Notes under the pieces: model-generated
What the model saw: the letters and a program-made list of their open reading frames with translations, nothing else
Databases searched by the model: none
What the model was told of the DNA's origin: nothing
DNA from: a virus
Reading direction: 5' to 3' (one strand)
IMG/VR virus record: IMGVR_UViG_3300045988_173816
Span: 160,001 to 224,000 of that record
DNA: 64,000 nt
In this document: in pieces, positions 8,752 to 61,337 of the stretch
Numbering within the stretch: the stretch's first letter is position 1
Layout: every line of letters starts with the position of its first letter
Translations under genes and position numbers: made by a program

Positions 8752-8868
8752 AAAATTTAGAAACAACTTGGTTTCTTATTTTTGTTAAGATTAAGTTTGT
8801 TTAGATGGTTTAGTAAAGTAAGATTTAAGTCTTACATATTTCAGTACAGAAAGGGAAGATATAAGTAC

Positions 8869-14073: not shown

Positions 14074-14077
14074 TAAA

Positions 14078-14107
14078 AGAGAGGTTACCCTCTCTTTTTA
14101 TTTTTTG
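14078..14107 (+). terminator. intrinsic terminator
   Basis: AGAGAGG-TTAC-CCTCTCT followed by TTTTTATTTTTT. Confidence 0.85.
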
Positions 14108-14127
14108 CTTAAACTTTAAATTTTAGC

Positions 14128-14156
14128 TTGCAAAGTTTTTAAACTTCTGTTATTAT
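14128..14156 (+). promoter_or_regulatory. promoter P1 of a triple tandem set
   Basis: TTGCAA, 17 nt, TATTAT. Confidence 0.45.
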
Positions 14157-14198
14157 AGTTGTTGTACTAATGAGTTAAGAAAAACTTTAGAAAACTAC

Positions 14199-14227
14199 TT
14201 GACTTTTGTAAACATTTTTGATATAAT
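14199..14227 (+). promoter_or_regulatory. promoter P2 (extended -10)
   Basis: TTGACT, 17 nt, TGaTATAAT. Confidence 0.6.
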
Positions 14228-14290
14228 ATAGTTATCAAGTTAAGAAATGTTTTGATTTCAAAGGTTTGAAAAAAAAATAAAAGAAAACAC

Positions 14291-14319
14291 TTGACAAAAC
14301 AAAATTAGTTTGATATAAT
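14291..14319 (+). promoter_or_regulatory. promoter P3 (extended -10)
   Basis: TTGACA, 17 nt, TGaTATAAT. 36 nt upstream of the ATG at 14355. Confidence 0.65.
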
Positions 14320-14354
14320 AGACTTATCAAAAATAAAGAAAGAGGTAATACCTA

Positions 14355-17024
14355 ATGAAAAAACAACTAATCGCAACCGCTGCAATCGCAGCAACTGGTC
14401 TTGTCGGAACAATCGGAACAGCTCACGCAGATACGGTAGAGCTTCCATTACCTACAACTGCTAAAACTGAACCAGCTTTGGTAGAGAAAGAAGCGCCTAA
14501 GAAAGTGGAAGTGAAAACTCCTACTAAGGAAGAAGTCGCTGAACTTGGTGCTACTGCTAAACAAACTCAAGAAGATGCAGATAAAGCAAAAGAAGTCTTG
14601 GATCAAGCCAACGAAAAATCTGACAAAGCAGAAAAGAAAGTTGCAGACTTGAAACAAGCTAAAGATGATGCTCAAAAGATTGCTGACAAAGCAACTCCTG
14701 AGGTTATCCAAGGTGCAGAGAAGAAAGTGGAAACTGCGAAAGCAAGCGTTCTTACCAAAGAACAAACGGTATCCTCTGCGCAACAAGAACAAGACGATGC
14801 AGACCGTAAGGTTGCTATCCAAGGTAAAACTGTTGGTACAAAACAAGCAGAAGTGACTCAAGCGCAAAATGGTGTTACTGATGCTAAAGCGGAAGTGAAA
14901 ACTGCTGAGGATGCTTTGAAAGGCGAAGGTCTTGCAGAAGCTAAAGAAGCGCAAGATAAAGCTATTAAAGAAGAAGCTACAAGCAAACAAGCCCAAGCAG
15001 ATGCACAGATTGCTCTTAATGCCGCTAAGAAGTTGGACGGTGAGCTTGCTGAACAACTAACCCAAGCAGAAGCAACTGTTAAAACGGCTACAAAAGATGT
15101 AGAAGCTAAAGAAGCAGAAGCTAAAGAAGCGAAAACTAACCTTGATAATGCTCTTGCTACTTACAACCAAGCGGTATCTACTCTTGACGCTCTTCAAGAT
15201 AGCTCTAAGAAACAAACGATTACTCTTTCTCCAGCTTTCATTCAAGCAGTGAAAGATAAAATGGAGTTCCTTCGTCAAATCCGTTCAGGTGTCGAAATGA
15301 CTGAGGAAGAACGTAACGCTAAGAGCGATGATATTTATGACCGTATCGTTGGTTCACAAGTAGAACACAAGAAACTGAACAAATACGTTCCAAGTAAAGC
15401 AGACCAAGCGGATAAAACTCGCTACGACATTAACAATCTCCCACAAGAGATTAAAGATGAGTTGAATTACTACGTGGTTGACCTTATTAACCAAATGCGC
15501 CGTCAACTTGGACTTCCAGATGTTGTTCTTTCAAAAACTTCTCTTGAATTTGCTGATAAGGTTGCTAAAGAGTATGTGAAAGCGAACTTCTCTAAAGCAA
15601 TGAAAGATGACTACCGTGCTAAAGGTGGTGTCGGACACTACGCTATCGGTATCAACAAGGTTGCCAAAGAATATGGCATGCCTACAACAGATGCAGAAGA
15701 AGAAAGCAAGGGTCAACAGTATTATGAAAATACTGTAACTACTTATGTTTACCATAACTTCGATGATGCTGATGGGGTTTACCGTAAGACTCTTGGTGAA
15801 ATGAAAGAGAAGTTGTACGAAGACCTTGTAATGCTCGTTTCAACTAAAGGTGATTACGGACACACAGAGGGTATCCTTCAATTTACTCACGCAAATGAAA
15901 CCATCTACTTTGGTGGTGTAGCGCAAAGCAAGACTGATGATTTCTATACTACTCACTTCTTGACTGCTATTCGTAATGAAGAAGTGAAGGACTCTAAATG
16001 GGATAAAACACCTATTGCAAACCCACTTAGTGATGAAGTGATTGAGCGCAAATTGAGTGAAGCTCGTCAAGCGCTTGCTGATGCTATGACTACTCGCGAC
16101 AATGCAAAAACTACTTATGAAGCAAAAGCGAAAGCAGAGTCAGATGCGAAACTTGCTCTTACAAACGCACAAGCAAACTTGACTGCCTTGAAGAAAGGTG
16201 AAAGTCCACTTGCAAATGCACAAAAGGCTTTTGATGAAGCAAAAGACCGTCATGATAAAGCAGTAGTAACACTTGCTAATGCTAATGCCCTCGTCAACAA
16301 CTTGACTGCTTCAAAAGCTACAAAAGAAGAAGCTCTTACAAATGCACAAGCAAAACTTAAAGACGCTGAGCAAGTTCTTAAAACTGCACAAGAAGCTCTT
16401 AAAGCAGAAGAAGATAAGATGAAAGAGCTTGAAGCGATTGCTACAAGCAAAGCCCAAGCGGTATCTACTGCTAAGAAAGCACTTCAAGCTGCACAAAAAG
16501 AAGTTAAACAAGCCGAAAAAGAACTTGCAAACCTTAAAGGTGCGCATACTCGCTTGGCAGAAGTAAAAGCAGAGCTTGAAAAAGCTGAAACCGAGCTTAA
16601 AGATGCGTATAAGGCACAAAACAAAGCTAAACTAGATTATGAAACTAAGAGCCTTGCAGCAGACCAAGCTAAGACTGCTTTTGAAACTGCCAAAGTTCAA
16701 TATGAAGAAGCAGAAGCAAAACGCTTGGCTGAACTTGCAGATGCTAAACGTAAAGAGCTTGAAAAAGTAGGTTACAAACCAGTTCCAGTAGTAGATGGTA
16801 AAGGGAATGTGGTTGATTACAAAGTTCCACAAGCACCTGTAACAGTAGCTAATGTTACTACACCTCAAAATACTTCTGTAAATGAAGTTAAAGAGGTTAA
16901 AGGGAAAGAAGTTGCTCAAAATAACTTGCCAGAAACAGGAACTAAACAAACCTCTTGGGGTATCCTTGGTTTCCTTGGACTTACACTTGGTTTGGTGGGT
17001 TTCAAAAATCGCAAAGAAAATTAA
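14355..17024 (+). CDS. PrgA/Sec10-like surface-exclusion protein (LPXTG)
   Basis: Signal peptide, then long Ala/Lys/Glu/Gln coiled coils flanking a CAP/SCP-like globular domain (..YVVDLINQMRRQLGLPDV..GHYAIG..). C-terminal LPETG plus TM plus KNRKEN. This is the architecture of pCF10 PrgA. Confidence 0.8.
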   Translation: MKKQLIATAAIAATGLVGTIGTAHADTVELPLPTTAKTEPALVEKEAPKKVEVKTPTKEEVAELGATAKQTQEDADKAKEVLDQANEKSDKAEKKVADLKQAKDDAQKIADKATPEVIQGAEKKVETAKASVLTKEQTVSSAQQEQDDADRKVAIQGKTVGTKQAEVTQAQNGVTDAKAEVKTAEDALKGEGLAEAKEAQDKAIKEEATSKQAQADAQIALNAAKKLDGELAEQLTQAEATVKTATKDVEAKEAEAKEAKTNLDNALATYNQAVSTLDALQDSSKKQTITLSPAFIQAVKDKMEFLRQIRSGVEMTEEERNAKSDDIYDRIVGSQVEHKKLNKYVPSKADQADKTRYDINNLPQEIKDELNYYVVDLINQMRRQLGLPDVVLSKTSLEFADKVAKEYVKANFSKAMKDDYRAKGGVGHYAIGINKVAKEYGMPTTDAEEESKGQQYYENTVTTYVYHNFDDADGVYRKTLGEMKEKLYEDLVMLVSTKGDYGHTEGILQFTHANETIYFGGVAQSKTDDFYTTHFLTAIRNEEVKDSKWDKTPIANPLSDEVIERKLSEARQALADAMTTRDNAKTTYEAKAKAESDAKLALTNAQANLTALKKGESPLANAQKAFDEAKDRHDKAVVTLANANALVNNLTASKATKEEALTNAQAKLKDAEQVLKTAQEALKAEEDKMKELEAIATSKAQAVSTAKKALQAAQKEVKQAEKELANLKGAHTRLAEVKAELEKAETELKDAYKAQNKAKLDYETKSLAADQAKTAFETAKVQYEEAEAKRLAELADAKRKELEKVGYKPVPVVDGKGNVVDYKVPQAPVTVANVTTPQNTSVNEVKEVKGKEVAQNNLPETGTKQTSWGILGFLGLTLGLVGFKNRKEN

Positions 17025-17086: not shown

Positions 17087-17113
17087 AAACTATCTTTGAA
17101 AGGTAGTTTTACT
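17087..17113 (+). terminator. probable terminator
   Basis: AAACTATC-TTTGAAA-GGTAGTTT (one G-T pair) followed by TTACTTT. Confidence 0.45.
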
Positions 17114-17132
17114 TTATGTTAGTACAAAATAC

Positions 17133-17742
17133 ATGAAGCAGTAGAGCAGTAGAGAAGTGGGGAGTCACTGTAAAAGTTCTTCAAAGGTGGGGTAATACTG
17201 AGGTTCTTAAAGCTAGAAGAACGCCCATAAACCATAGATATTATACAGATGAATATATTTTAAATTACTAATGTTTAAGTCTTGATAAACCAACGTGTAA
17301 ACTTGTAGCCTATGCAGTGGTGTTCTCATGAGGTTAATGCTCTGAATTTCATCATTAGATTGAAATTATTCGTAGTTTTGTTAACCATAAAAGAGTTATT
17401 CTAGATGAAATATTTGAAGAGGTCGATAGTGGGTTGAATTATAACAGACATAAGTGGAATGAACTACGGCAAGTGGTTCTGAAAGATGATGAAGTAGATA
17501 AACTATATATCAATTATTAAGATCATGTTGTTCGATTTGGATTTGATGGCTTTGAGCTATTATATAACCAACATCAAACAGAAATTAGTGTGTTAAATTT
17601 AGTGTGTTAAATAATGAAACTACAAGCCTAGAGAAAGAGCTTGTAGAGGATTTAACGTCTATTGTTGATGAATTTTCTTGTCGTTTGGATGGTCTTCGTA
17701 AGTACAAGAAAGCCTTGAGAGAAGATAAGGAGGTTCTAACAA
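17133..17742 (+). pseudogene. tnpA: IS607 tnpA (MerR-HTH serine recombinase) pseudogene
   Basis: Fragments in different frames: AVEKWGVTVKVLQRWGNTEVLKARRTPINHRYYTDEYI (HTH), KLVAYAVV (in place of VVAYCRVS), EIFEEVDSGLNYNRHKWNEL, VVRFGFDGFELL, LVEDLTSIVDEFSCRL. Several stops and a perfect 14-bp tandem duplication (17585-17598 / 17599-17612). Confidence 0.75.
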
Positions 17743-18966
17743 ATGAAATTGACTCGCAAAGTAGTTCTTAAACCAAATAAGACTATGAAGCAAGTTTTAG
17801 ATTCTCTTTGTGACTACAGACGATATTGTTGGAACGAAGCACTTGAAGTGTGGAATACTTTGTATGAGCAACGTTTAATAGGTTTAACTGAGAAAGAGCG
17901 TTCTGCAATTCAAGAGTTAGTTAAATCAAAACAACCATTGACTGATGAGTTACAAGAGTTAAATGCTTTATACCCTTCACCCAGTTATTATACAGTTAGA
18001 AATATATTAACTTCTCAAAAAGAGGATTGGCAATACTTGTTATCTTCAAGAGTATTACAACTTGCAGTAAAGGATTTATCAGACTCTTGGTTTCGTTTCT
18101 ATGAGAACTCTAAGGAGTTTGGGAAACCTACTTATAAAAGTAGCAAAGCACCAAAGCAAGGTTTTAAAACAGACCGTAGTCGTATTATAAATGGTAAATT
18201 AGTTTTAGATAAACCTCAACCTTACAAAGAAACTTGGTACCCTATCTCGTTTAGAGGTGCTAATTTATCCGATGGTAAAATTACTTTGTGTTCTATAACC
18301 CGTGTAAATGGTAAGTATTATGCATCTTTAGTGGTTGAAATTGAACTTCTTAACTTGACTAAAACTGATAAAGTCAACGCAGTTGATTTAAACGTAGACC
18401 ATTTTGACACGTTAGATGGTCGTTTCAACCTACAATCTAAGCTTTTAAATAAACTCTATAATAGAGTTAAACATTACCAAAAAGTGTTAGCTCGTAAGCG
18501 TTTAGAAAATCCTGATTACAAAAACTCAAAAGGGTATCAAGCAACGAGAGTCAAGTTGCAAGCTACTTATGAGCGTATTCGGAATATTCAAGATGACTTA
18601 CTACATAAGTTTACAACTTCACTCTTTGTAAATTACGATACTGTAGTTCTTGAAGACTTAGATGTAAGGAAAATGCAAATGAAGAAACAAGCAAAGAATT
18701 TGCATCGTTCCTTATTTGGTCGTTTTCGTCAGTATATGGAGTATAAAGCTATTAAGTTTGATAAAAAGCTTATTATAGCTGATAGGTTCTATCCTTCAAC
18801 CCAACGTTGTTCTTCTTGTGGTTTTGTAAAAACTGGTGAAGATAAGATAACTCTTGAAGGGAATAAGAAACACGGTACAAAACATCATGAGTATGTTTGT
18901 TATGGGTGTGGATTTACTACGGATAGAGACTACAATGCGGTATTAAATTTGTTAGCTTTAGCTTAA
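17743..18966 (+). CDS. tnpB: TnpB (IS607/IS605 OrfB-type RuvC nuclease), apparently intact
   Basis: AAGGAGG RBS. RuvC motifs VDLNVD, VLEDLDVRKM and DRDYNAV are present. Zn finger CSSCG...CYGCG. Confidence 0.85.
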   Translation: MKLTRKVVLKPNKTMKQVLDSLCDYRRYCWNEALEVWNTLYEQRLIGLTEKERSAIQELVKSKQPLTDELQELNALYPSPSYYTVRNILTSQKEDWQYLLSSRVLQLAVKDLSDSWFRFYENSKEFGKPTYKSSKAPKQGFKTDRSRIINGKLVLDKPQPYKETWYPISFRGANLSDGKITLCSITRVNGKYYASLVVEIELLNLTKTDKVNAVDLNVDHFDTLDGRFNLQSKLLNKLYNRVKHYQKVLARKRLENPDYKNSKGYQATRVKLQATYERIRNIQDDLLHKFTTSLFVNYDTVVLEDLDVRKMQMKKQAKNLHRSLFGRFRQYMEYKAIKFDKKLIIADRFYPSTQRCSSCGFVKTGEDKITLEGNKKHGTKHHEYVCYGCGFTTDRDYNAVLNLLALA

Positions 18967-19205
18967 GATATAAAAGAAATTTGGAGGTTGGCTCAACCTC
19001 AAGGGTTATAGAACTAACTCTTTAGATGCGTTAAGAGGTTGTCTCTGTCGTTACCCACAAGTTGGATACGGGAATGCAACTGTTGACGGACGTGAGAAAA
19101 ACTTTAGAGGTAAAGTAATGTTAGATAAACTTATTTATGTCTAGCATTATCTAGGTTTTTCGGAGCAGAGTGAGGGGGAGTTTCTTCCTTTCGTTTTCTA
19201 TTTTA
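18967..19205 (+). ncRNA. putative TnpB omegaRNA / right-end region
   Basis: About 240 nt of non-coding, hairpin-rich sequence directly 3' of tnpB (e.g. GGAGGTTGGCTCAACCTC). Assigned by position only. Confidence 0.35.
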
Positions 19206-35387: not shown

Positions 35388-36005
35388 ATGGATTTATTAA
35401 ATGCACGTCCTTACCCAGTAGGTAAGCAAACAACTTTGTTTTACATTGATGAACATTACAAAGTTCAACCTTTTACATTAACAAAAGAAATGGTCGAAAG
35501 TGGTTCTGTAAAACTCCCTCGCTTACCTTATGACAAAGCAGACTATGAGCTATTTATCAAAGACGGACAAGTATTCACAGACCATTTTGATGGAGTTATT
35601 GTTACTTACACAGAAAAAGAGACTGGTGAGGTTCATGAACCTTTTGCTTGTGGTTTTCTATCTTGGGGGTTGAGAGACATTTTCCCTAAACTCGGCAAGA
35701 TTTTGAGAGACAAGATTAAGCAAGAAAATAAAGAGCGGTATCCTCTCATTCGTTTTGTAGATGCGAAGAATTCTGAGGTCTTGACTGAGTTCCCTTATGA
35801 GAACTACTACAAAGAGAATTTTGCTTTAAATGAAATGGGCAAATATATTGAAAAAGGTCACTCAGATATTTTAGTTCAAGCTTACGATAACGAAACAGAC
35901 GGGTGGATTTCATTTGAATTGAGACGTTTGAATTATTGGAAAGCTCTAGATGATACAAAAGCGCAAGTACAAGAAGAAGTACAACGTTGGAAAGAAGACT
36001 TGTAA
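35388..36005 (+). CDS. hypothetical protein
   Basis: ATG 35388 follows ACGAGGA. The track start at 35271 would run through a terminator and a promoter. Confidence 0.8.
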   Translation: MDLLNARPYPVGKQTTLFYIDEHYKVQPFTLTKEMVESGSVKLPRLPYDKADYELFIKDGQVFTDHFDGVIVTYTEKETGEVHEPFACGFLSWGLRDIFPKLGKILRDKIKQENKERYPLIRFVDAKNSEVLTEFPYENYYKENFALNEMGKYIEKGHSDILVQAYDNETDGWISFELRRLNYWKALDDTKAQVQEEVQRWKEDL

Positions 36006-36006
36006 A

Positions 36007-37323
36007 ATGGCAGAGAATTTTGCAACGAAATATAGGTCAAAAGATGTAGACCGCTATATTGGGAATGAATTGGCAGTTCAAAAGTTGCTAAATCGTTTCT
36101 CTTCAAAAGATGGTGAAGACTATCCAGCTTGTGTGATGATTTCAGGAGCAAGTGGGTGTGGGAAAACAACAATGGCTCGTATGTCTACGAAGTTGGTGTT
36201 GTGTGAAAATAAGCAACTTCGTAAGTGGAAGAACAGAGAGTACTTATTGCCTTGTAACCAATGTAAGATGTGTCAAGACTTAAATGAGTATATTGAGACG
36301 GCAGATGCTACTAAACTTTTCTCAGTAAAAGAATTAGACTCTTCTAAAACAGGGAATGTAGATGCAGTACGACAATTTGTAGAGTCTGCTTCTATGCCTA
36401 AACTCTTTGCAGGCTATTCTATTTTTATCTTTGACGAGTGTCATTTGATTTCTAAGATGGGTCAAGAAAGCATGTTGAAGTTTACTGAGGATGCTCCTCC
36501 TAAGTCTATCTTTTTCTTCTGTACAACAGACCCTCAAAAAATGTTAGAACCTTTGACAACTCGAATGGACTTGAAGATTGAGATTGAACTTCCAAGTGTC
36601 GCAGATAATGTGGAACTTATGAAATGGGTATCGACTGAGGAAGGTTTTGCTTTTGACAAACCAGCTTTAGAGTTAATTGCAGTTCGTTCAAATTGCGTCT
36701 TTCGTCAGTCATTGAAACAACTTGAGAATGTTTACCGTTCTTATGGTTCTGTACGTTATGATGATGTTGTTAAGGTTCTTGATGTAAATAAGCATAGAGG
36801 TTTATACTTTGACTTCTTAGATTTTCTAAGAACAAAGAACACGGTTCTTTATACAAAGACCGTACACACTGCTATGTTGGAAGTAGGGTTGAAGAATTTT
36901 GTTGAAGGTTTGAGAGAGTTTGTTAAACGGGGTCTTTACATTTCGTTAGGTCTTCATGTACTTGGTATAACAAAAGATGAGATTAAGTTATATAAAGACT
37001 TATTTGACAAGTTCAACAATGAAGAGATTTTGGCTTTGCTAGAGTTTTTGAATAACTTAGGTAGAGGTGATATAGAAACTCAACTGCTTTTATTGGGGTA
37101 TCGAGGTCTTTTAGCATCTCAACCTTCTCCTTCTTCTGTTTCTTCTGTAGGAGTTGAAGTCAATGAAATTAAAGGAAATGAGCGTGTGTTGGAAAGCAAA
37201 CAAATGTCTCAAAAGCATAAGGAAGATAAAGCAGCACACCATGAAAATACGGTTGTAAAAGCGCAGTTAGATTTAAAACCTATGTCTACTGATCAAATGG
37301 CAGATATGTTTGAAAGTTTATAA
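36007..37323 (+). CDS. DnaX-like (DNA polymerase III gamma/tau family) AAA+ clamp-loader ATPase
   Basis: N-terminus MAENFATKYRSKDVDRYIGN resembles DnaX (..YRKYRPQ.F..V.GQ). Walker A GASGCGKTT, Zn module CNQCKMCQDL, Walker B IFIFDECHLIS, sensor LTTRM. Confidence 0.8.
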   Translation: MAENFATKYRSKDVDRYIGNELAVQKLLNRFSSKDGEDYPACVMISGASGCGKTTMARMSTKLVLCENKQLRKWKNREYLLPCNQCKMCQDLNEYIETADATKLFSVKELDSSKTGNVDAVRQFVESASMPKLFAGYSIFIFDECHLISKMGQESMLKFTEDAPPKSIFFFCTTDPQKMLEPLTTRMDLKIEIELPSVADNVELMKWVSTEEGFAFDKPALELIAVRSNCVFRQSLKQLENVYRSYGSVRYDDVVKVLDVNKHRGLYFDFLDFLRTKNTVLYTKTVHTAMLEVGLKNFVEGLREFVKRGLYISLGLHVLGITKDEIKLYKDLFDKFNNEEILALLEFLNNLGRGDIETQLLLLGYRGLLASQPSPSSVSSVGVEVNEIKGNERVLESKQMSQKHKEDKAAHHENTVVKAQLDLKPMSTDQMADMFESL

Positions 37324-40514: not shown

Positions 40515-40660
40515 ATGGAAGGTAAAACTCACAGATTAGGTGGTACGGTGTGTGCAATGGCGGGTTTCATAACCTTGAAGGACTCAGGTTACTTGATTCA
40601 GAGTGATTTGATTTCTCCAGCGTTACAGTTTCTAGTCATTTACACAGCGGGGATTTATGG
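40515..40660 (+). CDS. 5' exon of a split YdjM/DUF457-like membrane metal-hydrolase gene
   Basis: MEGKTHRLGGTVCAMAGF... is the typical family N-terminus (M.GKTH..GG). The unspliced frame stops at TAA 40662-40664. Confidence 0.7.
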
Positions 40661-41250
40661 GTAACGAACCTGTTACAATAAATTTATAAAAATGTATAAG
40701 AACATAGAAAAATTTATATAGAACAGAACGCCCTTCGTATCTAGTGATAGGTGCGAACTCAACGTTAAATGCTTTGAACTCCTAAAGCCTTGTAGCCTAA
40801 ACAGTAGATGGAAACGTCAAGCTGAGTGGAACGAAAGTAGAAAAAAGTACAAGGATAGCATAAGGTGAAATAAAAGCTAATCAGTGCTTAAGTGAATAAA
40901 ATAGTGACCCTTAAGAAACGTTAGTCCTACGTGCAGTAATAATGGATGTTTAGCAGGGAAAGTCCTACGGTCATAAGACTATGGAAGACCTCCAACGACT
41001 ATCTCCTAGAGGGAGAGTAAAACCGCAAGCTAATGGCGGAGGAAAAATGTTGCACCTAATTTTGATTAGGTGAAGATATAGTCTGCGCTCATGTGAAAGC
41101 ATGAGAGGTCTGCTGGTGACAGTAAGACTGCATCAAGGGTTGCGCCTTGGTGTGAACAAGAAAAATACAGATTTTTAGAAAACTTTTATATTTTTACTTT
41201 ACAAAATACCTTCAGTATGATAAACTTAATGTAAGAATTAAGTGAGGTGT
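40661..41250 (+). ncRNA. group I intron ribozyme core (5' part of the IStron)
   Basis: Matches to classical elements: P-like GCAGGGAAAG (40953-40962), R-like TCCAACGACTATCT (40991-41004), S-like AAGATATAGTCT (41073-41084). GACTAT/ATAGTC can pair as P7. Hairpins at 41002-41016, 41023-41039, 41053-41072 and 41088-41105. Confidence 0.65.
41198..41226 (+). promoter_or_regulatory. possible internal promoter for tnpA
   Basis: TTTACA, 17 nt, TGaTAAACT. Confidence 0.4.
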
Positions 41251-41254
41251 ACTT

Positions 41255-41881
41255 ATGGTATTGATGTCTATAGGAAAATTTGCGAAGGAGTTAGGTGTTA
41301 CGCCTGAACATGTTCGCACAATGCACAGAACAGGTGAGGTAATCCCTGCTCGTATTTCAGAAAAAGGAACTAGATATTACTCTGAGGATCAACTAAGAGA
41401 GTTGAAAAACACTCAGTTTTCTCAAAGAGAAGAAAAAGTAGTAGCTTATTGCAGAGTTTCTAATAAGTCACAAAAAGATGATTTGGAGAAACAAGTTGAG
41501 AACGTAAAAGCGTATATGTGCGCTAAAGGTTACTCATTTGAAGTTATTACAGATATTGGTTCCGGTATCAATTATAAAAATAAAGGTTTGCAAGAGTTGA
41601 TTTCTTTAATTGATTCAAACCAAGTTACTAAAATTGTTATTCTTTATAAGGATAGATTAGTACGATTTGGTTTTGAGTTGATTCAATTACTTTGTGAATT
41701 GCATGATGCTGAAATTGAAATCATTGACAATTCAAAGTATAGTAAAGATGAAGAATTAACTGAGGATTTAATTCAAATTGTTACACTATTTGCAAATAGA
41801 CTTTATGGTTCACGGTCTAAAAAGACTAAGACACTAATTGAGAGGGTTTCTGATGTTACGAGGAATGAAAATCGCACTTGA
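41255..41881 (+). CDS. tnpA: IS607-family serine recombinase transposase TnpA
   Basis: MerR-like HTH (IGKFAKELGVTPEHVRTMHRTGEV..GTRYY) plus resolvase catalytic motif VVAYCRVSNKSQKDDLEKQ. Confidence 0.9.
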   Translation: MVLMSIGKFAKELGVTPEHVRTMHRTGEVIPARISEKGTRYYSEDQLRELKNTQFSQREEKVVAYCRVSNKSQKDDLEKQVENVKAYMCAKGYSFEVITDIGSGINYKNKGLQELISLIDSNQVTKIVILYKDRLVRFGFELIQLLCELHDAEIEIIDNSKYSKDEELTEDLIQIVTLFANRLYGSRSKKTKTLIERVSDVTRNENRT

Positions 41882-43040
41882 TTTAACTGGTGAGCAAGAA
41901 CAACAGATGTGGAAGTCTGTAGGGGTTGCTCGTTGGTCATATAACTACGCTATAACTAGATGTAAAGAACAATATTTAAAACACTTAAAAAATCCTACTT
42001 TACCTAAAACATTAACCGCAGGTGAAATTTTAAAAGAGTTGACTGTATTGAAGAGGACAACCCATCCTTGGTTGAAAGAGGTTGGTTCTAATGTTGTCAA
42101 ACAAGCAGTTAAAGATTGGAACGATGCTCGTAATCGGTTCTTTAAGGGGTTAGGTAAGGCTCCAAACTATAAATCTAAGAACAACTCTAAACCTAGCTTT
42201 TATGTAAACTATGAGACTTTAAGAAGAGTAAGTGGTGGTTTTAGAGGTGAGAAGTTAGGTTTTATAAAAACCACCCAACCTCTACCTAAAATACCAAAAG
42301 GAACTCATTACAAAAACCCAAGAATTTCTTTTGATGGAAAATTTTGGTATTTGTCTGTTTCTTATGAAGTTCAAGAGGTTTCAGTAGAGTTGACAGATTT
42401 AGTTATAGGTGTAGATTTAGGGATAAACACTTTAGCAACATTATCTACAGGTGAATTTATTGGGAACATCAATAAAAGTCGCAGAGTAAAACAGTTGGAG
42501 AAACAATTACGACGGGAACAACGTCACCTTGCGCGTCAGTTGCAAGCCAACACCAAAGGGTATCTCACAACTGAAAACGGTGGTAGAAAGCCGATTTATA
42601 AGCGACCTTTAGAGTTATGTTCTAATATTCAAGAAACCAAACGTAAGATTAAATTGCTATACCGTAAATTATCATCCATTCGTTTGAATCATATTCACCA
42701 ACTAACTTCTTATCTTGTAAACCAATTACCAAAAGGCATTGTAATTGAAGATTTGAATGTTAGAGGGATGATGAAAAACAGACACTTAGCGAAACACATT
42801 CAAAATGCAATGTTCTACGAAATTCGTAGACAGTTAGAATATAAGTGTTTACAGTACGGTATCTATTTAGTTGTTGCAGATCGTTTTTATCCTAGTTCTA
42901 AAACGTGCAGTTATTGTGGTAATATTAAGTCTGATTTGAAATTAAAGGACAGAGTTTACAAATGTGGCTCTTGTGGTTTAAAGAAAGATAGAGACTTAAA
43001 TGCAGCGGAAAATTTAGCTTATTATTTCTATAGAGGTTAA
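41853..43040 (+). CDS. tnpB: TnpB RuvC-like RNA-guided nuclease (IS607 OrfB)
   Basis: Overlaps the tnpA 3' end. RuvC motifs IGVDLGIN, VIEDLNVRGM, DRDLNAAENL. Zn finger CSYCG..CGSCG. Start is ATG 41853 or 41865; the track gives 41838. Confidence 0.9.
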   Translation: MLRGMKIALDLTGEQEQQMWKSVGVARWSYNYAITRCKEQYLKHLKNPTLPKTLTAGEILKELTVLKRTTHPWLKEVGSNVVKQAVKDWNDARNRFFKGLGKAPNYKSKNNSKPSFYVNYETLRRVSGGFRGEKLGFIKTTQPLPKIPKGTHYKNPRISFDGKFWYLSVSYEVQEVSVELTDLVIGVDLGINTLATLSTGEFIGNINKSRRVKQLEKQLRREQRHLARQLQANTKGYLTTENGGRKPIYKRPLELCSNIQETKRKIKLLYRKLSSIRLNHIHQLTSYLVNQLPKGIVIEDLNVRGMMKNRHLAKHIQNAMFYEIRRQLEYKCLQYGIYLVVADRFYPSSKTCSYCGNIKSDLKLKDRVYKCGSCGLKKDRDLNAAENLAYYFYRG

Positions 43041-43258
43041 TACCTTATGTACCCATCGCTACTGGGGAATTTAAGCCTATTGAGTGTTATATCAAATGAT
43101 AGTAGACACATGAGCTTTGCTCATGTGTCGAGGTCAGACACGTTGATGTAGGAAGTGAAAAACGAAACGGATAAGTCTATAAGTTTAAAACTTATAGCAA
43201 CATGAGTTTTCACAAAGTAAAGATATAGGTGTAAAAATCTATATTTTTCGTAGCGGGG
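43041..43258 (+). ncRNA. putative omegaRNA scaffold / IStron 3' end
   Basis: About 220 nt non-coding with hairpins (e.g. GACACATGAGC-TTT-GCTCATGTGTC at about 43105-43129; TATAAGTTTAAAACTTATA). Ends ..GTAGCGGGG at the exon junction. Confidence 0.45.
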
Positions 43259-43832
43259 TATGTGGTCGGATAATGACCATCATTGGGAGTCGAGTCCTTT
43301 AAAAGACCCAGCTTCTTGGTTACAGAATAAGCTTTTGCACATAGCAAATAGTCCGTACAAGAGGTTGGATGAGCGATTAAGTAGCAAACAGAAGAAAAAC
43401 TCTGTTCTGTATAAAACTTTGAAATTCATGAGGTGTATCCATCGGTCGTGGCAAACACATAGCGAGTTCACACTTCTCATGATATTGTGGTTGATGTTCA
43501 GCCCAACTTTCTTAGGATTTACAGGTAGGTTTGACCCTCTGTTATGGTTACTAATAGTCACAGGGTTTGGACTTGGAGTGATTTCCCATTTAGTGTTAGA
43601 TATGTTGACTACGGAGGGAATACGTTTCGCTCTTGGTGTTTTCATCAAAATATTCTTTCCGAACATTCCTATGTTCACAACTATTCGCTTGGTTCCCGGT
43701 ATCTCAGCCTTTAAAACAGGTTCTGAGTGGGAAATGGCAATTAGAAAAGCCTTATCTATCATACAATATGGTATGTTAGTTTTGGTATTGTTGGACTTAG
43801 GTGGCATATCTGTGTTACATTATTTTAGTTGA
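43259..43832 (+). CDS. 3' exon of the split YdjM/DUF457-like membrane metal-hydrolase gene
   Basis: WSDNDHH (compare LLPDIDH), IHRSWQTHS (compare GHRGFTHS) and ISHLVLDMLTTEG (compare LSHILADMLTPAG) of E. coli YdjM, plus multiple TM segments. Confidence 0.75.
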
Positions 43833-51633: not shown

Positions 51634-53811
51634 ATGTTTATAGAGCCTATGTTGAGGTATATTCTACTTCCTTTCATCATATTGATAGCAAGTTTGTTAG
51701 TACCTTTGATTTTAAAGTTCTATCGAAAGCGAGCTAAGAAGAAGATTAAGCAGAGGAAGTCTGAGTTAAGGAATTTAAAACAAGATAGGGTATCCCTACA
51801 AAATCAAGTTAAGTCAAAAGATTTAACAGACTTTGAGAAAGAGGAAACTCAAAAAGAGTTAGCAAACACGTTAGAGGATGAAGCAAAAGCTCGATTTAAG
51901 TTGTTAACTCAAAGAGCATCTTTAGCGTTTGCGAACTTTGTAACATGGATAGCTCGCTTAGTTTCTATTCTGATGCTTACTTTTGGTTGGACATTTACGG
52001 TTGCTATGGTAGGTGCTTCAACTGCGGTTATTTATGTATCAGTTATGTCTACTGTGGATTGTAGTGCTGATGGTACTGTTAAACAACACAAACATAAAGA
52101 TGAGAATAACAAGTCTGAAAAAGGTGAGTATAAAGGTGGTGAGGGTGAACTACCTAAAGCAGAAGGTATTAAACCTCACGTTGAAGATTTCCGACAGATT
52201 ATCTATAAGAAATTTGGTATTGATGATATTGGAGGTTATCGACCCGGTGACCCACAAGACCATGGACAAGGTTTGGCTTTGGACGTTATGGTTCCTGATG
52301 GTTCTAAGTTAGGTGATGATGTTGCTCAGTTTGCTATTGATAATATGGAAGCAGCAGGTATTACCTACATTATTTGGAAACAACGCTTTTATAGGGGTGT
52401 TGATAACAAATATGGTGCAGCTAACACTTGGAACAAAATGGAAGATCGAGGTAGTAAGACTGAGAACCATTTTGACCATGTACATATTAGCTTTGGAGCT
52501 AGTAAAGGTAGTGGAGAGATTAAAGATGGAGGTAGTTCATCTAGTTCTTCAAGCTATTCTAAGAAGTCTGTGGATAGCTCCACTTATGGTTTTGGTGACT
52601 TAACCGATGAAGTTACAGGTTGGGCGAAGTCTTATAGTGGTTTCACTTTTATTGGGGACTCCCTAGGAGTTGGTGTTGAGCCTAAACTAAAAAGTTATTT
52701 CCCTAACTCAACCTTTGATAGTAAAGTTTCAAGAGCATTTGAACACTCAGACAGTACACTTAGCGGTATCGAAACTGCTAAAAAGTTAGAGTCTGAAAAG
52801 AAAGTCAAAGACATTGTAGTTATAGCATTAGGTACAAACCAAATGCCTACACCACTACTTATGGACTCTATGGTTGATGCTCTACCTAGTGCTAAGAAAA
52901 TTATTTGGGTGACTACGGCTTCACAAGGGGGTGGAGGTTCTTACAATACTGTCGAGCATGATAAGATTGCTGAAGTGATTAAGTCTTATGTAGGTAGTCG
53001 TTCAAATATGGCTTACCTAGACTGGAACCGATATGTTGAAGAGAAGTTTAATTGGTCAGAATTGACCTCAGATTCGGTTCACATGAATGATAAGGGGTAT
53101 GTCTTATACTCTAAGTTCCTTACTCGTGGTATTTATGATGTTGTTGAGGGTGGCTCAAGTGACTCTTCTGAGGATAGCTTACTTACAAAAGCTATTAAGA
53201 AGATTAAATGCAAACCGAAGCATCATCATCACGGTACTTCTACGAAGTCTAAACCTAGTGGTCTTTCTTCAACAGATGGTCAAGACAATCCACCAGCAGA
53301 TGCGTTTACTTCTTGGGCTTATCGTCCAGAAGATTTACCGGCAGGGTTGAAACCTTATATTCTTGACCCTAAAAATTACGGTATGGACTTTGGTTTACCA
53401 GGTAATGGATGGTTTCAGACTTCTAACCCTGAGTTAAATGGTCAGTGTGTCGCTTTGACTATTTCACTTGGTGATTGTGTTTGGGGTAGACCTCATGCGA
53501 ATGTTCAAGGTAATGGTATTGATCAAGCAAATGCTTGGGCGAGTATTTTTGGAAACTCTGTAACTACAACTCCAAGACGAGGTGCTATTTTCTCAAGTAA
53601 AGAACACCCTGTATATGGTCACACAGGTATTGTATGTACGGTGTTTAAAGATGGTTCAATTTTAACTTGTGAGCAAAACTTACCACTTGCAGGTTGGAAT
53701 TATCGTGGTGAGCAGTATGTTTGGTGTTTCCGTATGTATCGCGAAGAGCAGTGGAAGGCAGTTGGGATGACTTTTGCGTATGATGATACAAAAACACCGA
53801 TTTTAAAATAA
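51634..53811 (+). CDS. membrane-anchored three-domain cell-wall hydrolase (LAS-type metallopeptidase-like, SGNH esterase, CHAP)
   Basis: N-terminal TMs. GDPQDHGQGLALDV ... HFDHVHISF (H-x-D / HxH pattern of VanY/LAS peptidases). FIGDSLGVG ... DSVHMNDKGY (GDSL/SGNH blocks I and V). NGQCVALT ... YGHTGIVC (CHAP Cys/His). Confidence 0.85.
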   Translation: MFIEPMLRYILLPFIILIASLLVPLILKFYRKRAKKKIKQRKSELRNLKQDRVSLQNQVKSKDLTDFEKEETQKELANTLEDEAKARFKLLTQRASLAFANFVTWIARLVSILMLTFGWTFTVAMVGASTAVIYVSVMSTVDCSADGTVKQHKHKDENNKSEKGEYKGGEGELPKAEGIKPHVEDFRQIIYKKFGIDDIGGYRPGDPQDHGQGLALDVMVPDGSKLGDDVAQFAIDNMEAAGITYIIWKQRFYRGVDNKYGAANTWNKMEDRGSKTENHFDHVHISFGASKGSGEIKDGGSSSSSSSYSKKSVDSSTYGFGDLTDEVTGWAKSYSGFTFIGDSLGVGVEPKLKSYFPNSTFDSKVSRAFEHSDSTLSGIETAKKLESEKKVKDIVVIALGTNQMPTPLLMDSMVDALPSAKKIIWVTTASQGGGGSYNTVEHDKIAEVIKSYVGSRSNMAYLDWNRYVEEKFNWSELTSDSVHMNDKGYVLYSKFLTRGIYDVVEGGSSDSSEDSLLTKAIKKIKCKPKHHHHGTSTKSKPSGLSSTDGQDNPPADAFTSWAYRPEDLPAGLKPYILDPKNYGMDFGLPGNGWFQTSNPELNGQCVALTISLGDCVWGRPHANVQGNGIDQANAWASIFGNSVTTTPRRGAIFSSKEHPVYGHTGIVCTVFKDGSILTCEQNLPLAGWNYRGEQYVWCFRMYREEQWKAVGMTFAYDDTKTPILK

Positions 53812-59156: not shown

Positions 59157-61337
59157 ATGTTTACAAAAAAAGATAAAAAGGTGACGAACCTTTCCCAAAG
59201 TTCGTTAGAAAGTCAGAAGACAAAAGAAAATCAAGAAAAACGTAAGGGTTTTCTTGATAAGTACATTGATTTGATTAAGATGTGGGACTCGGTCTACGAC
59301 GAGTACCGTTCTCGTTACAATCCAGAGCGAGCTTTAGCTTCAAATAGGCGCTTGTACATGGACTCTAACTTCACTTATAGTAAGACTCAAAATGTAACTG
59401 CTTATTATGTCATTGAGGAGTTACCTCCAGAGTTTGAGTTGGGGTATCGAGCTTCACTGCGTTCGATTGTACCAGAAGGTATTTCCATGAACTTCATTGA
59501 AGATAATGAGCCTTATGAAATTAACTGGGACGACCCTAAAGTAAAAACTCGTTTGTCGGTACTGGATGAAGTAAGTGTGAAGAACCAAGAAGAGTCTAGT
59601 AAGGGTTCTAGGTTTACTCAACATAAGTATGTAAAAACAGCTCAAAAAGATGAGCGTTTATCGATTTCTGTGGAATATGCTAATGATGCGACTTTGAGTG
59701 ACCAAGATAAGCGTTACTTATACAAGGTTCGTATTATGGTTATTATCACAGGTCGAAGAGGTCCAGAGTTTACAGATGTGTTGAAAGACTTTGAGCACAT
59801 GTGTGACCAACGAACTGGGTTTAGAGTTCGTAGGGTAACTGGCACTATTGCAGATACTATGGGGGATTTCTCACCTTTTAACTCAGAAATGTCTAAGGAG
59901 AGTAAACGTAAAATTCGCTCTACTTTCACTTCTGATGAGTTAAGAGCACAGTGGCACCCATTTGAGCAGGGTATCGTTGGTTTTGGTACGACTTACTTAG
60001 GTACAAATATTGAAACTCACTCTCCAGTTTTCCACCAATTTAAACGTGACGTTACAGATGCTGAGATTGTAATTGTAATTGGTATGTCTGGGTCTGGTAA
60101 GTCGTTTGAAATGAAGATGTTAGCTACACAGTTTGCAGCTAATGATAATATGATTATGACTATCAATGACTATGAAGGTGGAGAATACAAAGGTCTAGGT
60201 CAATTGCTTGCTGAAGATTTCCAAGTTGTTTCGTTGGATTTGGGAATGGGTTCAGGTCGTTACCTCGACCCAGTTCCGATTGTTCCAACTGGTGATGAAG
60301 AAATGGACAATACCTTGTTTACTCGTTCTCGTAAGAATATTATTGACTTGTTCAGAGCAGTAGCTGGTTTGGAAACCTTGAAGAAGTACGCTTGGATTCC
60401 TTTAATTATTGAGCGTGGGGTTGACTTGTTTTATAGTAACTATGGGGTATCGATTGACCCTCAAACGTGGCACGCGCTAGAGGGTTGCTCTATTTATACA
60501 GTATATGAGTATTTGAAAAAATATCGTCCGAATTTAGATGATGTTTTAAACTCTATTACTGAGGAAGATAAAAATATTTTAAGTGAAGAAGATATTAAAG
60601 AGTTGTACAAAGACGCTTTAAAAGACTTTCAAAAAGACTATCTTTATTTCTTGGAAACCTTTGGTTCTTATTTTGAAAAAAGTAAGAAGTTGAACAACTA
60701 CTTTAAATATCCGATTTACTTAAAGGATATTATTGATGCAAAATTAGTTATTTGTGACTATAACATGCGTGGGGTTCCAGAAAGTCAGTTGTCTGAATTG
60801 GATGCTATTCTTATTCCTATGAATGCAGCAACTGTAGCTTATTACCGTACTGTGTATCCTTTCTCACGTGGTCTTTACAATGTGAAGATTTGGGAGGAGT
60901 TGCAACGTTTCAGCTCTCTTCCAAATGCAGTAGAGATTTTGAAAACTCCAATCACAGGGGGTCGTAAAGCAGGTGATATTAACATTGTTGCTTCCAATGA
61001 TCCAGTTAAATTGGTTGAAAAAGATGAGTTCTCCTTGTTTGCTAACTACACATTAGCAATGGTTGGTAAGATTAAGTCCCCAGTTTATCAAGAGATTGTA
61101 TGCAAGGCTCTCGGTATCACTGATTTAGCTGATGAATTAGCCGAGATTGGTTCTGTTATCGAAGAGGATGAGGGTTTGACTGCGGGTTATGATGAGGTTC
61201 ATGCAGAACCTTATAAGAAAGCCTTTGTTTTGAAATTGAACTCTGGGGAATCTTCAGTTGTAAAAGCAGACTTACCTCGTGCTTTAAGTGATACTCCACT
61301 CTTCAAGACCGGTGTGATTGCGCAAGACAAACAGTAA
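59157..61337 (+). CDS. VirB4/PrgJ-like T4SS ATPase
   Basis: 726 aa. Walker A VIGMSGSGKSFEMK. Its size and its position next to the coupling protein are typical of Gram-positive VirB4 homologues. Confidence 0.8.
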   Translation: MFTKKDKKVTNLSQSSLESQKTKENQEKRKGFLDKYIDLIKMWDSVYDEYRSRYNPERALASNRRLYMDSNFTYSKTQNVTAYYVIEELPPEFELGYRASLRSIVPEGISMNFIEDNEPYEINWDDPKVKTRLSVLDEVSVKNQEESSKGSRFTQHKYVKTAQKDERLSISVEYANDATLSDQDKRYLYKVRIMVIITGRRGPEFTDVLKDFEHMCDQRTGFRVRRVTGTIADTMGDFSPFNSEMSKESKRKIRSTFTSDELRAQWHPFEQGIVGFGTTYLGTNIETHSPVFHQFKRDVTDAEIVIVIGMSGSGKSFEMKMLATQFAANDNMIMTINDYEGGEYKGLGQLLAEDFQVVSLDLGMGSGRYLDPVPIVPTGDEEMDNTLFTRSRKNIIDLFRAVAGLETLKKYAWIPLIIERGVDLFYSNYGVSIDPQTWHALEGCSIYTVYEYLKKYRPNLDDVLNSITEEDKNILSEEDIKELYKDALKDFQKDYLYFLETFGSYFEKSKKLNNYFKYPIYLKDIIDAKLVICDYNMRGVPESQLSELDAILIPMNAATVAYYRTVYPFSRGLYNVKIWEELQRFSSLPNAVEILKTPITGGRKAGDINIVASNDPVKLVEKDEFSLFANYTLAMVGKIKSPVYQEIVCKALGITDLADELAEIGSVIEEDEGLTAGYDEVHAEPYKKAFVLKLNSGESSVVKADLPRALSDTPLFKTGVIAQDKQ

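Follow-up and report, generated by a model that had tools for sequence, protein, structure and literature searches.

A probably active group B IStron within a YdjM-like gene from human oral metagenomes

When a mobile element splits a conserved gene, is the gene lost, or can its reading frame be restored at the RNA level? This question is raised by positions 40515-43832 of a 64,000-nucleotide stretch of DNA (positions 160,001 to 224,000 of IMG/VR record IMGVR_UViG_3300045988_173816, hereafter the window), in which the two halves of a YdjM-like gene (PF04307) lie on either side of an inserted element. The window is probably part of a ~284-kb pXO16-like giant plasmid of a human oral Firmicute. 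A first-pass annotation had proposed that the gene is split by an IS607-type IStron with a group I intron, tnpA, tnpB and an omegaRNA, and every one of these components is supported by the analysis reported here. We are confident that window positions 40662-43256 constitute a complete, intact group B (IS607-type) IStron, inserted in the YdjM/PF04307 gene in the sense orientation, and the element is probably active.

Boundaries and target site of the element

The IStron spans 2595 bp of the + strand, begins TAACGAAC and ends TTTTTCGTAGCGG (GTAGCGG), and is inserted without a target-site duplication. Its left end adjoins TGGG (40658-40661, + strand), the predicted target and transposon-adjacent motif (TAM), of which the final GG is the IS607 core dinucleotide; the insertion point after this motif falls in codon 49/50 of the YdjM-like gene, and GG is found at both junctions (40660-61 and 43255-56). 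The component parts follow one another on a single strand, namely the ribozyme (40662-41159), tnpA (41255-41881), tnpB (41853-43040) and a tail (43041-43256), with the 593-nucleotide (nt) leader (40662-41254) lacking any long open reading frame (ORF).

These ends are regarded as fixed because empty alleles, an independent copy and the rules of the family agree. Empty alleles on contigs L002 and L004 read ...GATTTATGGG|GGTATGTGGTC..., which is exactly window position 40661 joined to 43257, and the junctions are thus TATGGG|TAACG...GTAGCGG|GGTATG when occupied and TATGGG|GGTATG when empty. Contigs encoding a homologue 95% identical to the joined product, L002 and L004 among them, are syntenic with the window, the neighbouring genes encoding products of 311, 98, 160, 301, 290 and ~1034 amino acids (aa). 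An independent copy in Gemella (L007), with a TnpB 86% identical to that of the window, shows the same ends in an unrelated context (..TTTGTGGG|TAACAAAAC.. and ..GTAGCGG|AAGAAT..). In addition, the right-end terminus TATATTT(T/A)TCGTA(G/T)CGG is conserved in five elements (those of the window, Gemella, C. botulinum, Selenomonas and phage c-st), among which similarity breaks off exactly after CGG, and TGGG also precedes the left end of the Gemella, C. botulinum, Selenomonas and phage c-st copies. Group B IStrons insert after TGGG, AGGG or GAGG, have U as their first base, end CGG and follow a 5' exon that ends in G (PMC4227781), while TGGG is both the TAM and the target of CboIStron, which has a GG core (bioRxiv 10.1101/2023.11.20.567912). 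The window element conforms in its TGGG site, its first base (T/U), its CGG end and the lack of a target-site duplication.

The Gemella copy (L007 3362-5389; metagenome-assembled genome of an uncultured Gemella sp., CALIWM010000383.1) is the closest genomic relative, at ~86% nucleotide identity. It has lost the equivalent of window positions 40779-41351, a segment that holds the core of the ribozyme and the 5' portion of tnpA. What remains is its first ~117 nt together with tnpB and the guide-RNA tail, and a tmRNA gene and a tRNA gene are situated ~2 kb upstream of the copy.

Transposase, nuclease and guide RNA

Both protein-coding genes are intact, as had been claimed, with Pfam domains and catalytic motifs retained. 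The tnpA gene (41255-41881, + strand) encodes an IS607-type serine recombinase of 208 aa with MerR_1 (MerR-like helix-turn-helix) and Resolvase domains and a catalytic serine at residue 69; the protein is 63% identical to CboTnpA_S, and the residue equivalent to S67 is conserved. The tnpB gene (41853-43040, + strand; alternative start 41865) encodes a predicted RNA-guided nuclease of 395 aa, counted from the ATG at 41853, and the same 395-aa gene is called on metagenome contigs. Its product has the Pfam domains HTH_OrfB_IS605, OrfB_IS605 and Cas12f1-like TNB, the RuvC motifs GVDLG, IEDL and DRDLN and both CxxC pairs, and its D/E/D motifs align with those of CboTnpB. Identity is 55% to CboTnpB and 54% to the TnpB of SrISt1, compared with 47-48% to the TnpBs of intron-less Clostridium IS607 elements; this closer relationship to IStron TnpBs fits inheritance of the IStron as a unit.

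The 216-nt tail (43041-43256, + strand) comprises the omegaRNA (right-end element RNA, reRNA) scaffold and the right end of the element, with the terminal G43256 as the predicted 3' splice site. A covariance search placed a RAGATH-18 core (RF03064) at 43076-43154 (+ strand) with 61.3 bits against a gathering score of 44.9, bearing out the earlier description of a structured tail that forms an omegaRNA. RAGATH-18 is the guide-RNA scaffold of IS607 TnpBs (PMC11061315). The minimum-free-energy fold of the tail (z = -5.0) contains this core together with a closing or pseudoknot helix, CGCUAC/GUAGCG (43057-62/43250-55, + strand), which lies directly before G43256 and shows a compensatory change to CGAUAC/GUAUCG in C. 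botulinum and c-st. In CboIStron, the 3' half of a pseudoknot overlaps the 3' splice-site determinants (bioRxiv 10.1101/2023.11.20.567912), and the closing helix of the window element corresponds to this pseudoknot. Further upstream, the 5' arm of an AU-rich inverted-repeat stem (41160-41200, + strand) pairs with 43214-43249 and closes the insertion-sequence loop, with nested repeats at 41160-77/43232-49 (18 nt, 94%) and 41187-41200/43214-27 (14 nt, 93%); a long AU-rich inverted-repeat stem of 15-34 bp around the ORF region is a feature of group B IStrons (PMC4227781).

From its position, and by analogy with CboIStron, the guide portion of the omegaRNA is predicted at 43257-43276 (+ strand; GGTATGTGGTCGGATAATGA), in the first bases of exon 2, and the guide would run from 43257 onward, matching the bases directly after TGGG on the empty allele. 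On the occupied allele the guide sequence is preceded by GCGG, not TGGG, so that the occupied site would, by the CboIStron data, escape self-cleavage. Two further scans concerned the same region. A local Rfam search returned a mir-2009 match inside tnpB on the opposite strand (42225-42307, - strand; 30.5 bits against a gathering score of 90, E 4.5e-4), which was treated as a chance hairpin match, and a promoter and terminator scan of the locus gave counts at or below chance.

Occupied and empty alleles

A contig of 284,100 bp from a human oral metagenome (ERZ989696) matches the window at 100% identity, and the IStron occupies the same site in three contigs from other, separate assemblies (L034, L036 and L037). 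Relative to the window, the IStrons of L034 and L036 show 8-9 differences per 2595 nt (99.7% identity), the same 8 being common to both and one more being found in L036, and that of L037 shows 5 differences over the last 2281 nt, the part covered. Two of the differences between lineages fall in the intron, where one (U40991 -> C) turns a G.U pair of helix P6 into G-C, and three adjacent differences at 43116-18 sit in a hairpin loop. The flanks, compared over 1.5 kb on either side of the IStron, diverge by 9-15%: L034 and L036 are 84-85% identical to the window upstream and 90-91% downstream, and L037, compared in its downstream flank, is 89.5% identical. Empty-site contigs are 93-95% identical to the window upstream and 90-93% downstream. 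The contrast in identity between IStron and flanks gave a Fisher p of 5e-105.

The first flank differences between the occupied lineages lie 18 nt upstream and 53 nt downstream of the element. The 53-nt downstream tract is common to both occupied lineages and differs in 19/19 empty alleles examined (7 haplotypes), and an identical run of this length has a probability of ~0.005 at the divergence of the flanks. The sharp identity contrast and the shared tract argue for spread by homologous recombination, and not by vertical descent or repeated TnpA insertion; a short stretch would have been co-converted with the element, on the side of the predicted TnpB cut. In all 19 empty alleles, moreover, either TGGG is replaced by TGGT or one or more of guide positions 1-20 are mismatched, natural variants including mismatches at positions 3, 10, 12, 15 and 18. 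This is expected if the element homes, as perfectly matching alleles would be converted on meeting it, although the observation is not significant alone, since ~88% of independent haplotypes would mismatch within 20 nt at ~10% divergence. We tentatively suggest, at somewhat less than even confidence, that the locus preserves a natural footprint of RNA-guided homing between plasmid lineages, always at the same TGGG site. If so, the co-conversion tract may be asymmetric, reaching at least 53 nt on the guide/target side and <18 nt on the TAM side.

Near-identical IStrons at one site could instead result from independent TnpA insertions into the same TGGG, a sequence that IS607 TnpA prefers, but such insertions would not carry 53 nt of flanking exon with them, and TnpA used hundreds of sites in E. 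coli, making repeated use of a single site unlikely. Similarly, metagenome assemblers can collapse repeats, yet L034, L036 and L037 come from separate assemblies and differ consistently from the window. The occupied lineages sampled number only two, and we regard these explanations as unlikely without considering them negligible.

The group I ribozyme

The 5' part of the element holds a group I ribozyme (40659-41159, + strand), recognised by a covariation scan, by its relatives and, at a sub-threshold score, by Rfam Intron_gpI. Megablast of the locus against phages and plasmids gave no match, and relatives surfaced only in sensitive blastn mode. With the 593-nt leader as query, this search recovered SrISt1 (76.5% identity, bases 1-505), CboIStron (74.7%) and the phage c-st IStron (75.6%), as well as a second C. 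botulinum plasmid and ~100 Staphylococcus/Enterococcus phage introns that match the core. Matches to the known IStrons cover 78-85% of the 593 nt at 74.7-76.5% nucleotide identity (E 1e-84 to 2e-96), and in each of the four IStron records an IS607 transposase gene and a TnpB gene come after the match, and a host gene is split.

A secondary structure was obtained from seven aligned sequences by scanning all column pairs for conserved, covarying stacks; the Gemella copy, having lost the core, and the intron-less Clostridium elements were unusable for intron covariation. The final fold has 107 pairs in 20 helices (P1-P9.2) and the canonical group I arrangement. Standard pairs occupy 92.2% of its 690 cells, compared with 38-44% when partners were slid by 1-3 columns, and 56 pairs show changes on both sides, compared with 7-14 in the slid controls, values that were reached in 0/500 shuffles. 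By its sequence and predicted fold, the intron is of the IA2-like group I type, with a P3/P7 pseudoknot, a P4-P6 domain, P7.1/P7.2 and an extended P9.

All helices lie on the + strand. P1 (40659-62/40730-33) pairs GGGU with GCCC and includes U40662.G40730, and an internal loop follows; P1a lies at 40670-74/40722-26, and P2 (40734-43/40748-57) is a hairpin with a GUGA loop. P3 (40760-66/41046-52) is 100% paired with 4 compensatory pairs, and J3/4 (AAA) separates it from P4 (40770-76/40949-55), in which two U.U mismatches in the window are Watson-Crick pairs in two phage relatives. P5 (40780-82/40944-46) carries a large multi-helix extension (40788-94/40848-54, 40807-10/40815-18, 40858-61/40931-34, 40863-65/40926-28 and 40877-81/40920-24), and P6 is formed by 40957-58/40990-91 plus 40963-65/40983-85. 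P7 (40997-41002/41078-83; GACUAU/AUAGUC) is invariant across the relatives, as are the joining regions J6/7 and J8/7. The remaining helices are P7.1 (41003-06/41012-15), P7.2 (41023-26/41036-39), P8 (41053-60/41065-72), P9 (41088-93/41100-05), P9.1 (41107-11/41125-29 plus 41113-15/41120-22) and P9.2 (41132-38/41145-51).

Much of the core described in the first-pass annotation was recovered in this fold. The motifs GCAGGGAAAG (40953), TCCAACGACTATCT (40991-41004) and AAGATATAGTCT (41073-41084) and the hairpins at 41002-16, 41023-39, 41053-72 and 41088-41105 are present, and the R, S, P7, P7.1, P7.2, P8 and P9 assignments were correct. The supposed P-like element GCAGGGAAAG is really the 3' strand of P4 running into P6 and not the 5' strand of P4, with P3, P4 and P5 lying much further upstream (40760-40955) than had been thought. 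For P1, the suggested pairing GGGU/GCCC is conserved in relatives, with its GCCC strand at 40730-40733 and not at 40728-40731, and the other candidate, AUUUAU/AUAAAU, lacks support and is not conserved. Two other models of the P3-P6 region were rejected, one with P3 at 40917-22/41046-51 and P4 at 40925-28/40956-59 and the other, Rfam-like, with P3 at 40931-36/41050-55 and no P4-P5; the pairings of both are disrupted in the relatives from C. botulinum and phages.

The covariance search suggested earlier as a check gave a mixed outcome. In a local E-value search, Intron_gpI (RF00028) spans 40869-41105 from one end of the model to the other with 41.7 bits and E 1.4e-8, yet this score is below the gathering score of 50 bits. 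P4-P5 are left out of the alignment, which sets the 5' strand of P3 at ~40931, and the sub-threshold score is attributed to this misplacement of P3-P5 by the model.

A different IStron occupies a second site in the same YdjM-like gene on other contigs of the plasmid family (L048 3469-5763; also L047 and L049-L051; contigs to 280 kb). Its junctions are ...GGACTTGGGG|TAAACTAATAG and ...CGACTGACGG|TTATTTCCCAT, and joining them restores GLGVISH. This IStron has a related group I intron, with the R and S boxes visible, and a 413-aa TnpB, and is without tnpA; a 58-aa ORF, for which Pfam gave no more than a weak NikA-like match, is possibly the Arc-like ribbon-helix-helix ORF reported in IStrons. The site occupied in the window is empty in L048 and reads TGGT. 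Rfam at E <= 0.01 found nothing in L048 3300-6200. With this copy missed and that of the window scoring 41.7 against 50 bits, surveys based on RF00028 will undercount IStrons.

The host gene and its spliced product

Exon 1 of the YdjM-like (PF04307) gene (40515-40661, + strand) comprises codons 1-49 and ends ...ATT TAT GGG, and exon 2 (43257-43832, + strand) comprises codons 50-240 and the stop. Both ORFs were located where the first-pass annotation had put them: the upstream one (40515-40664) encodes 49 aa before a TAA at 40662, T40662 being the first base of the inserted element, and the downstream one (43260-43832) encodes 190 aa that include WSDNDHH, IHRSWQTHS and ISHLVLDMLTTEG, the C-terminal YdjM signatures. 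Exon 1 is collinear with, and 97-98% identical to, the first 147 nt of uninterrupted 240-aa genes in L001-L006. Used as a query, the joined product retrieved 117 homologues, all but one of which carry PF04307, the closest being uninterrupted 240-aa proteins with 95% and 85-87% identity. The 240-aa product aligns to these 240-aa homologues without gaps, and the profile comparison that had been suggested places it above the cut-off for PF04307 (42.1 bits against 29, residues 1-201; 38.8 bits for a 239-aa version).

The gene could alternatively have been inactivated by a plain IS607 insertion, the leader being a decayed or non-catalytic intron relic and the two halves a recent pseudogene. The ribozyme core can indeed be lost, as it has been from the Gemella copy, but in the window the full set of helices P1-P9.2 is present and pairing, with P7, J6/7 and J8/7 the same as in all relatives, and one of the two intron differences between lineages is the change from G.U to G-C in P6. 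Likewise, the closest genomic TnpB relatives (Clostridium, 48% identity) belong to intron-less IS607 elements and the Rfam match falls short of its gathering score, yet over its whole length the leader shares 75% identity with an intron whose splicing has been demonstrated experimentally. Both exons are open, moreover, and can be joined in frame exactly where the homologues require. A pseudogene is accordingly judged very improbable, and the locus is best read as an intact IStron.

Several points nonetheless weigh against an intact and active element. Rfam at gathering thresholds reports no group I intron at the locus (41.7 versus 50 bits), and the seven sequences used to count pairing are those that yielded the fold. 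A 5' exon with G instead of U as its last base is unusual among group I introns, though documented in this family, and inspection revealed no convincing P10 pairing between the internal guide and GGUAUG; the 3' exons of the relatives are unrelated to one another. Only one copy of the IStron is present within the window, and every contig with an exact TnpA match carries the element at the same site, giving no sign of recent transposition to new sites. Finally, splicing, TnpB cleavage and TnpA transposition of the window element are inferred from homology.

Sequence comparisons also indicate where the exons are joined, and the junction is taken to be G40661|G43257, with a product of 240 aa (IYGGMW). 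At this point ..AGIYGGMW.. is read in each of the 14 aligned homologues, among them those at 95-97% identity, and because these proteins and the empty-site DNA (TATGGG|GGTATG) agree, the join proposed at first pass needs correcting by one codon. That join does give an in-frame ORF of 239 aa, and comparison with homologues contradicts its exact product (IYGMW) and fits perfectly a join 3 nt away, the correct end of the 5' exon being G40661 and not U40658. With P1 formed by GGGU/GCCC, the exon ends one base before the U and the last base of the element is G43256, in line with the 5' exon ending in G and the intronic U of group B IStrons (PMC4227781). Splicing after U40658 and G43256, to give 239 aa with one glycine fewer, would put the canonical U back at the 5' splice site without loss of the reading frame, but it is most improbable in the face of two glycines in 14/14 homologues, empty-site DNA that joins 40661 to 43257, a spliced junction identical to the DNA donor joint with a 5' exon ending in G in BcISt1 and CboIStron (PMC4227781 for BcISt1), and an AUUUAU/AUAAAU P1 without counterpart in relatives.

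Proposed life cycle of the element

The steps proposed here follow by homology with BcISt1 and CboIStron. The IStron would be transcribed within the host mRNA, in which the 5' ribozyme would pair the GGG of the exon and its own U40662 with GCCC at 40730-33 (P1), and the AU-rich stem (41160-41200/43214-43249) would bring the distant 3' end to the core. Two transesterifications would then join G40661 to G43257 and restore the 240-aa frame (..AGIYGGMWSDNDHH..), with ...ATTTATGGG|GGTATGTGG... as the predicted ligated-exon RNA junction. Alternatively, the 3' 216 nt would fold locally as the omegaRNA scaffold, with helix 43057-62/43250-55 sequestering the bases beside the 3' splice site; splicing and guide formation would thus be mutually exclusive. 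Once bound by TnpB, with the adjoining exon bases as the guide, the scaffold would direct cleavage of empty TGGG+GGTATGTGG... alleles (predicted target TGGG-GGTATGTGGTCGGATA), and repair from the occupied copy would reinstall the element, which amounts to homing. TnpA, for its part, would mobilise the element, in the form of a double-stranded circle, from one GG site to another, and the donor joint is expected to read TATGGGGGTATG. In CboIStron, splicing is scarless and yields the same junction as the DNA donor joint, homing depends on TnpB, and omegaRNA structure represses splicing (bioRxiv 10.1101/2023.11.20.567912).

Relationship to known elements

The window element is a group B IStron, a member of an already described family, and not a new kind of system. 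SrISt1, from plasmid pSRC1 of Selenomonas ruminantium (NC_017078.1; PMC4227781), has the same order of intron, IS607 tnpA, tnpB and structured tail, is of similar length (2583 bp versus 2595 bp), follows TGGG, ends CGG and likewise resides on a large plasmid; its intron is 76.5% identical over 505 nt and its TnpB 54% identical. It differs in its host gene and host (a rumen Negativicute), in having U-A in place of U.G as the pair at the P1 junction, and by ~25% nucleotide divergence.

CboIStron, from plasmid p1 of C. botulinum BKT015925 (NC_015417.1; bioRxiv 10.1101/2023.11.20.567912), is identical in architecture. The left end of the window element is preceded by TGGG, as in CboIStron, for which this TAM/target was measured, the GG core is shared, and both right ends read ...TTTTTCGTA(G/T)CGG. 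The intron, TnpA and TnpB are 74.7%, 63% and 55% identical, respectively, and the omegaRNA closing helix is the same but for its compensatory change. CboIStron lies in a Rha/antirepressor gene of a phage-like plasmid and has a slightly longer tail (~221 nt versus 216 nt); it splices, excises, integrates and homes in experiments, activities that are predicted for the window element.

BcISt1 of the Bacillus cereus group, the founding group B IStron, resembles the window element by its published description (PMC4227781), with a 5' exon ending in G and an intronic U, a U.G pair followed by an internal loop, an AU-rich inverted-repeat stem around the ORFs, and an IA2-like intron with P7.1/P7.2 and an extended P9. 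Its tnpA is a pseudogene or truncated, in contrast to the intact gene of the window. Intron-less IS607 elements with RAGATH-18, such as the Clostridium manihotivorum copies (L008-L020; PMC11061315), share the tnpA-tnpB-RAGATH-18 module, with TnpBs 47-48% identical, but have no 5' ribozyme, and their insertion within a gene would not be repaired at the RNA level.

A further case was observed in Staphylococcus phage SapYZU04 (L045; OP432864.1 66660-68011), where a tail lysin gene reads ..TATGGGG and is followed by TAACAATAAGTTACAAT.., a related group I intron and a gene annotated 'transposase' with a TnpB-like N-terminus. The arrangement looks like an IStron that escaped annotation, located in a structural or lysis gene of the phage.

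Plasmid context

Among ORFs of at least 120 aa in the window, all but two lie on the + strand, and most are orphans without a Pfam or PHROG match; PHROG and Pfam scans of the neighbouring genes, run to decide between phage and plasmid, mostly gave no match. The best clue to the plasmid type is a 726-aa ATPase (59157-61337), 33% identical by tblastn to a protein of B. thuringiensis pXO16, a 349.6-kb conjugative plasmid (PMC6199540). More distant YdjM-like homologues also occur on Bacillus cereus-group contigs of 111-325 kb. Other recognisable genes encode a clamp-loader-like ATPase (35950-37323), a CHAP/GDSL hydrolase (51634-53811) and an antigen I/II-family LPXTG adhesin of 1763 aa (8782-14073). 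The adhesin stands in tandem (8782-17024) with an 889-aa alanine/lysine/glutamate-rich protein, the C-terminus of which (LPETG, a hydrophobic stretch and a basic tail) resembles a sortase anchor by eye, and the two surface proteins are plausibly mating-aggregation factors of the plasmid.

The window also holds a second, unrelated TnpB element, located between two genes (17100-19150). Its tnpB (17743-18966) encodes a protein 29% identical to the IStron TnpB and is followed by an Rfam Transposase-1 RNA (19029-19086, 75.6 bits); the preceding ORF (17604-17771) looks, by eye, like a short C-terminal remnant of tnpA. No group I match was found upstream of this second tnpB.

Implications for IStron biology

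To our knowledge, IStrons, which join a ribozyme, a serine transposase and an RNA-guided nuclease, have been dissected only recently and few members have been examined closely. The window adds a complete and apparently active copy in a new setting, a conserved membrane-hydrolase gene on an oral giant plasmid, and exposes a gap in the Rfam detection of group B IStron introns. It also provides a fresh set of TnpB, guide RNA and TAM for genome-editing work. The possible homing footprint is the only part of the finding that goes beyond cataloguing: with matched empty and occupied alleles available from many metagenomes, the locus offers a natural test of the homing model, which has so far been shown only in E. 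coli.

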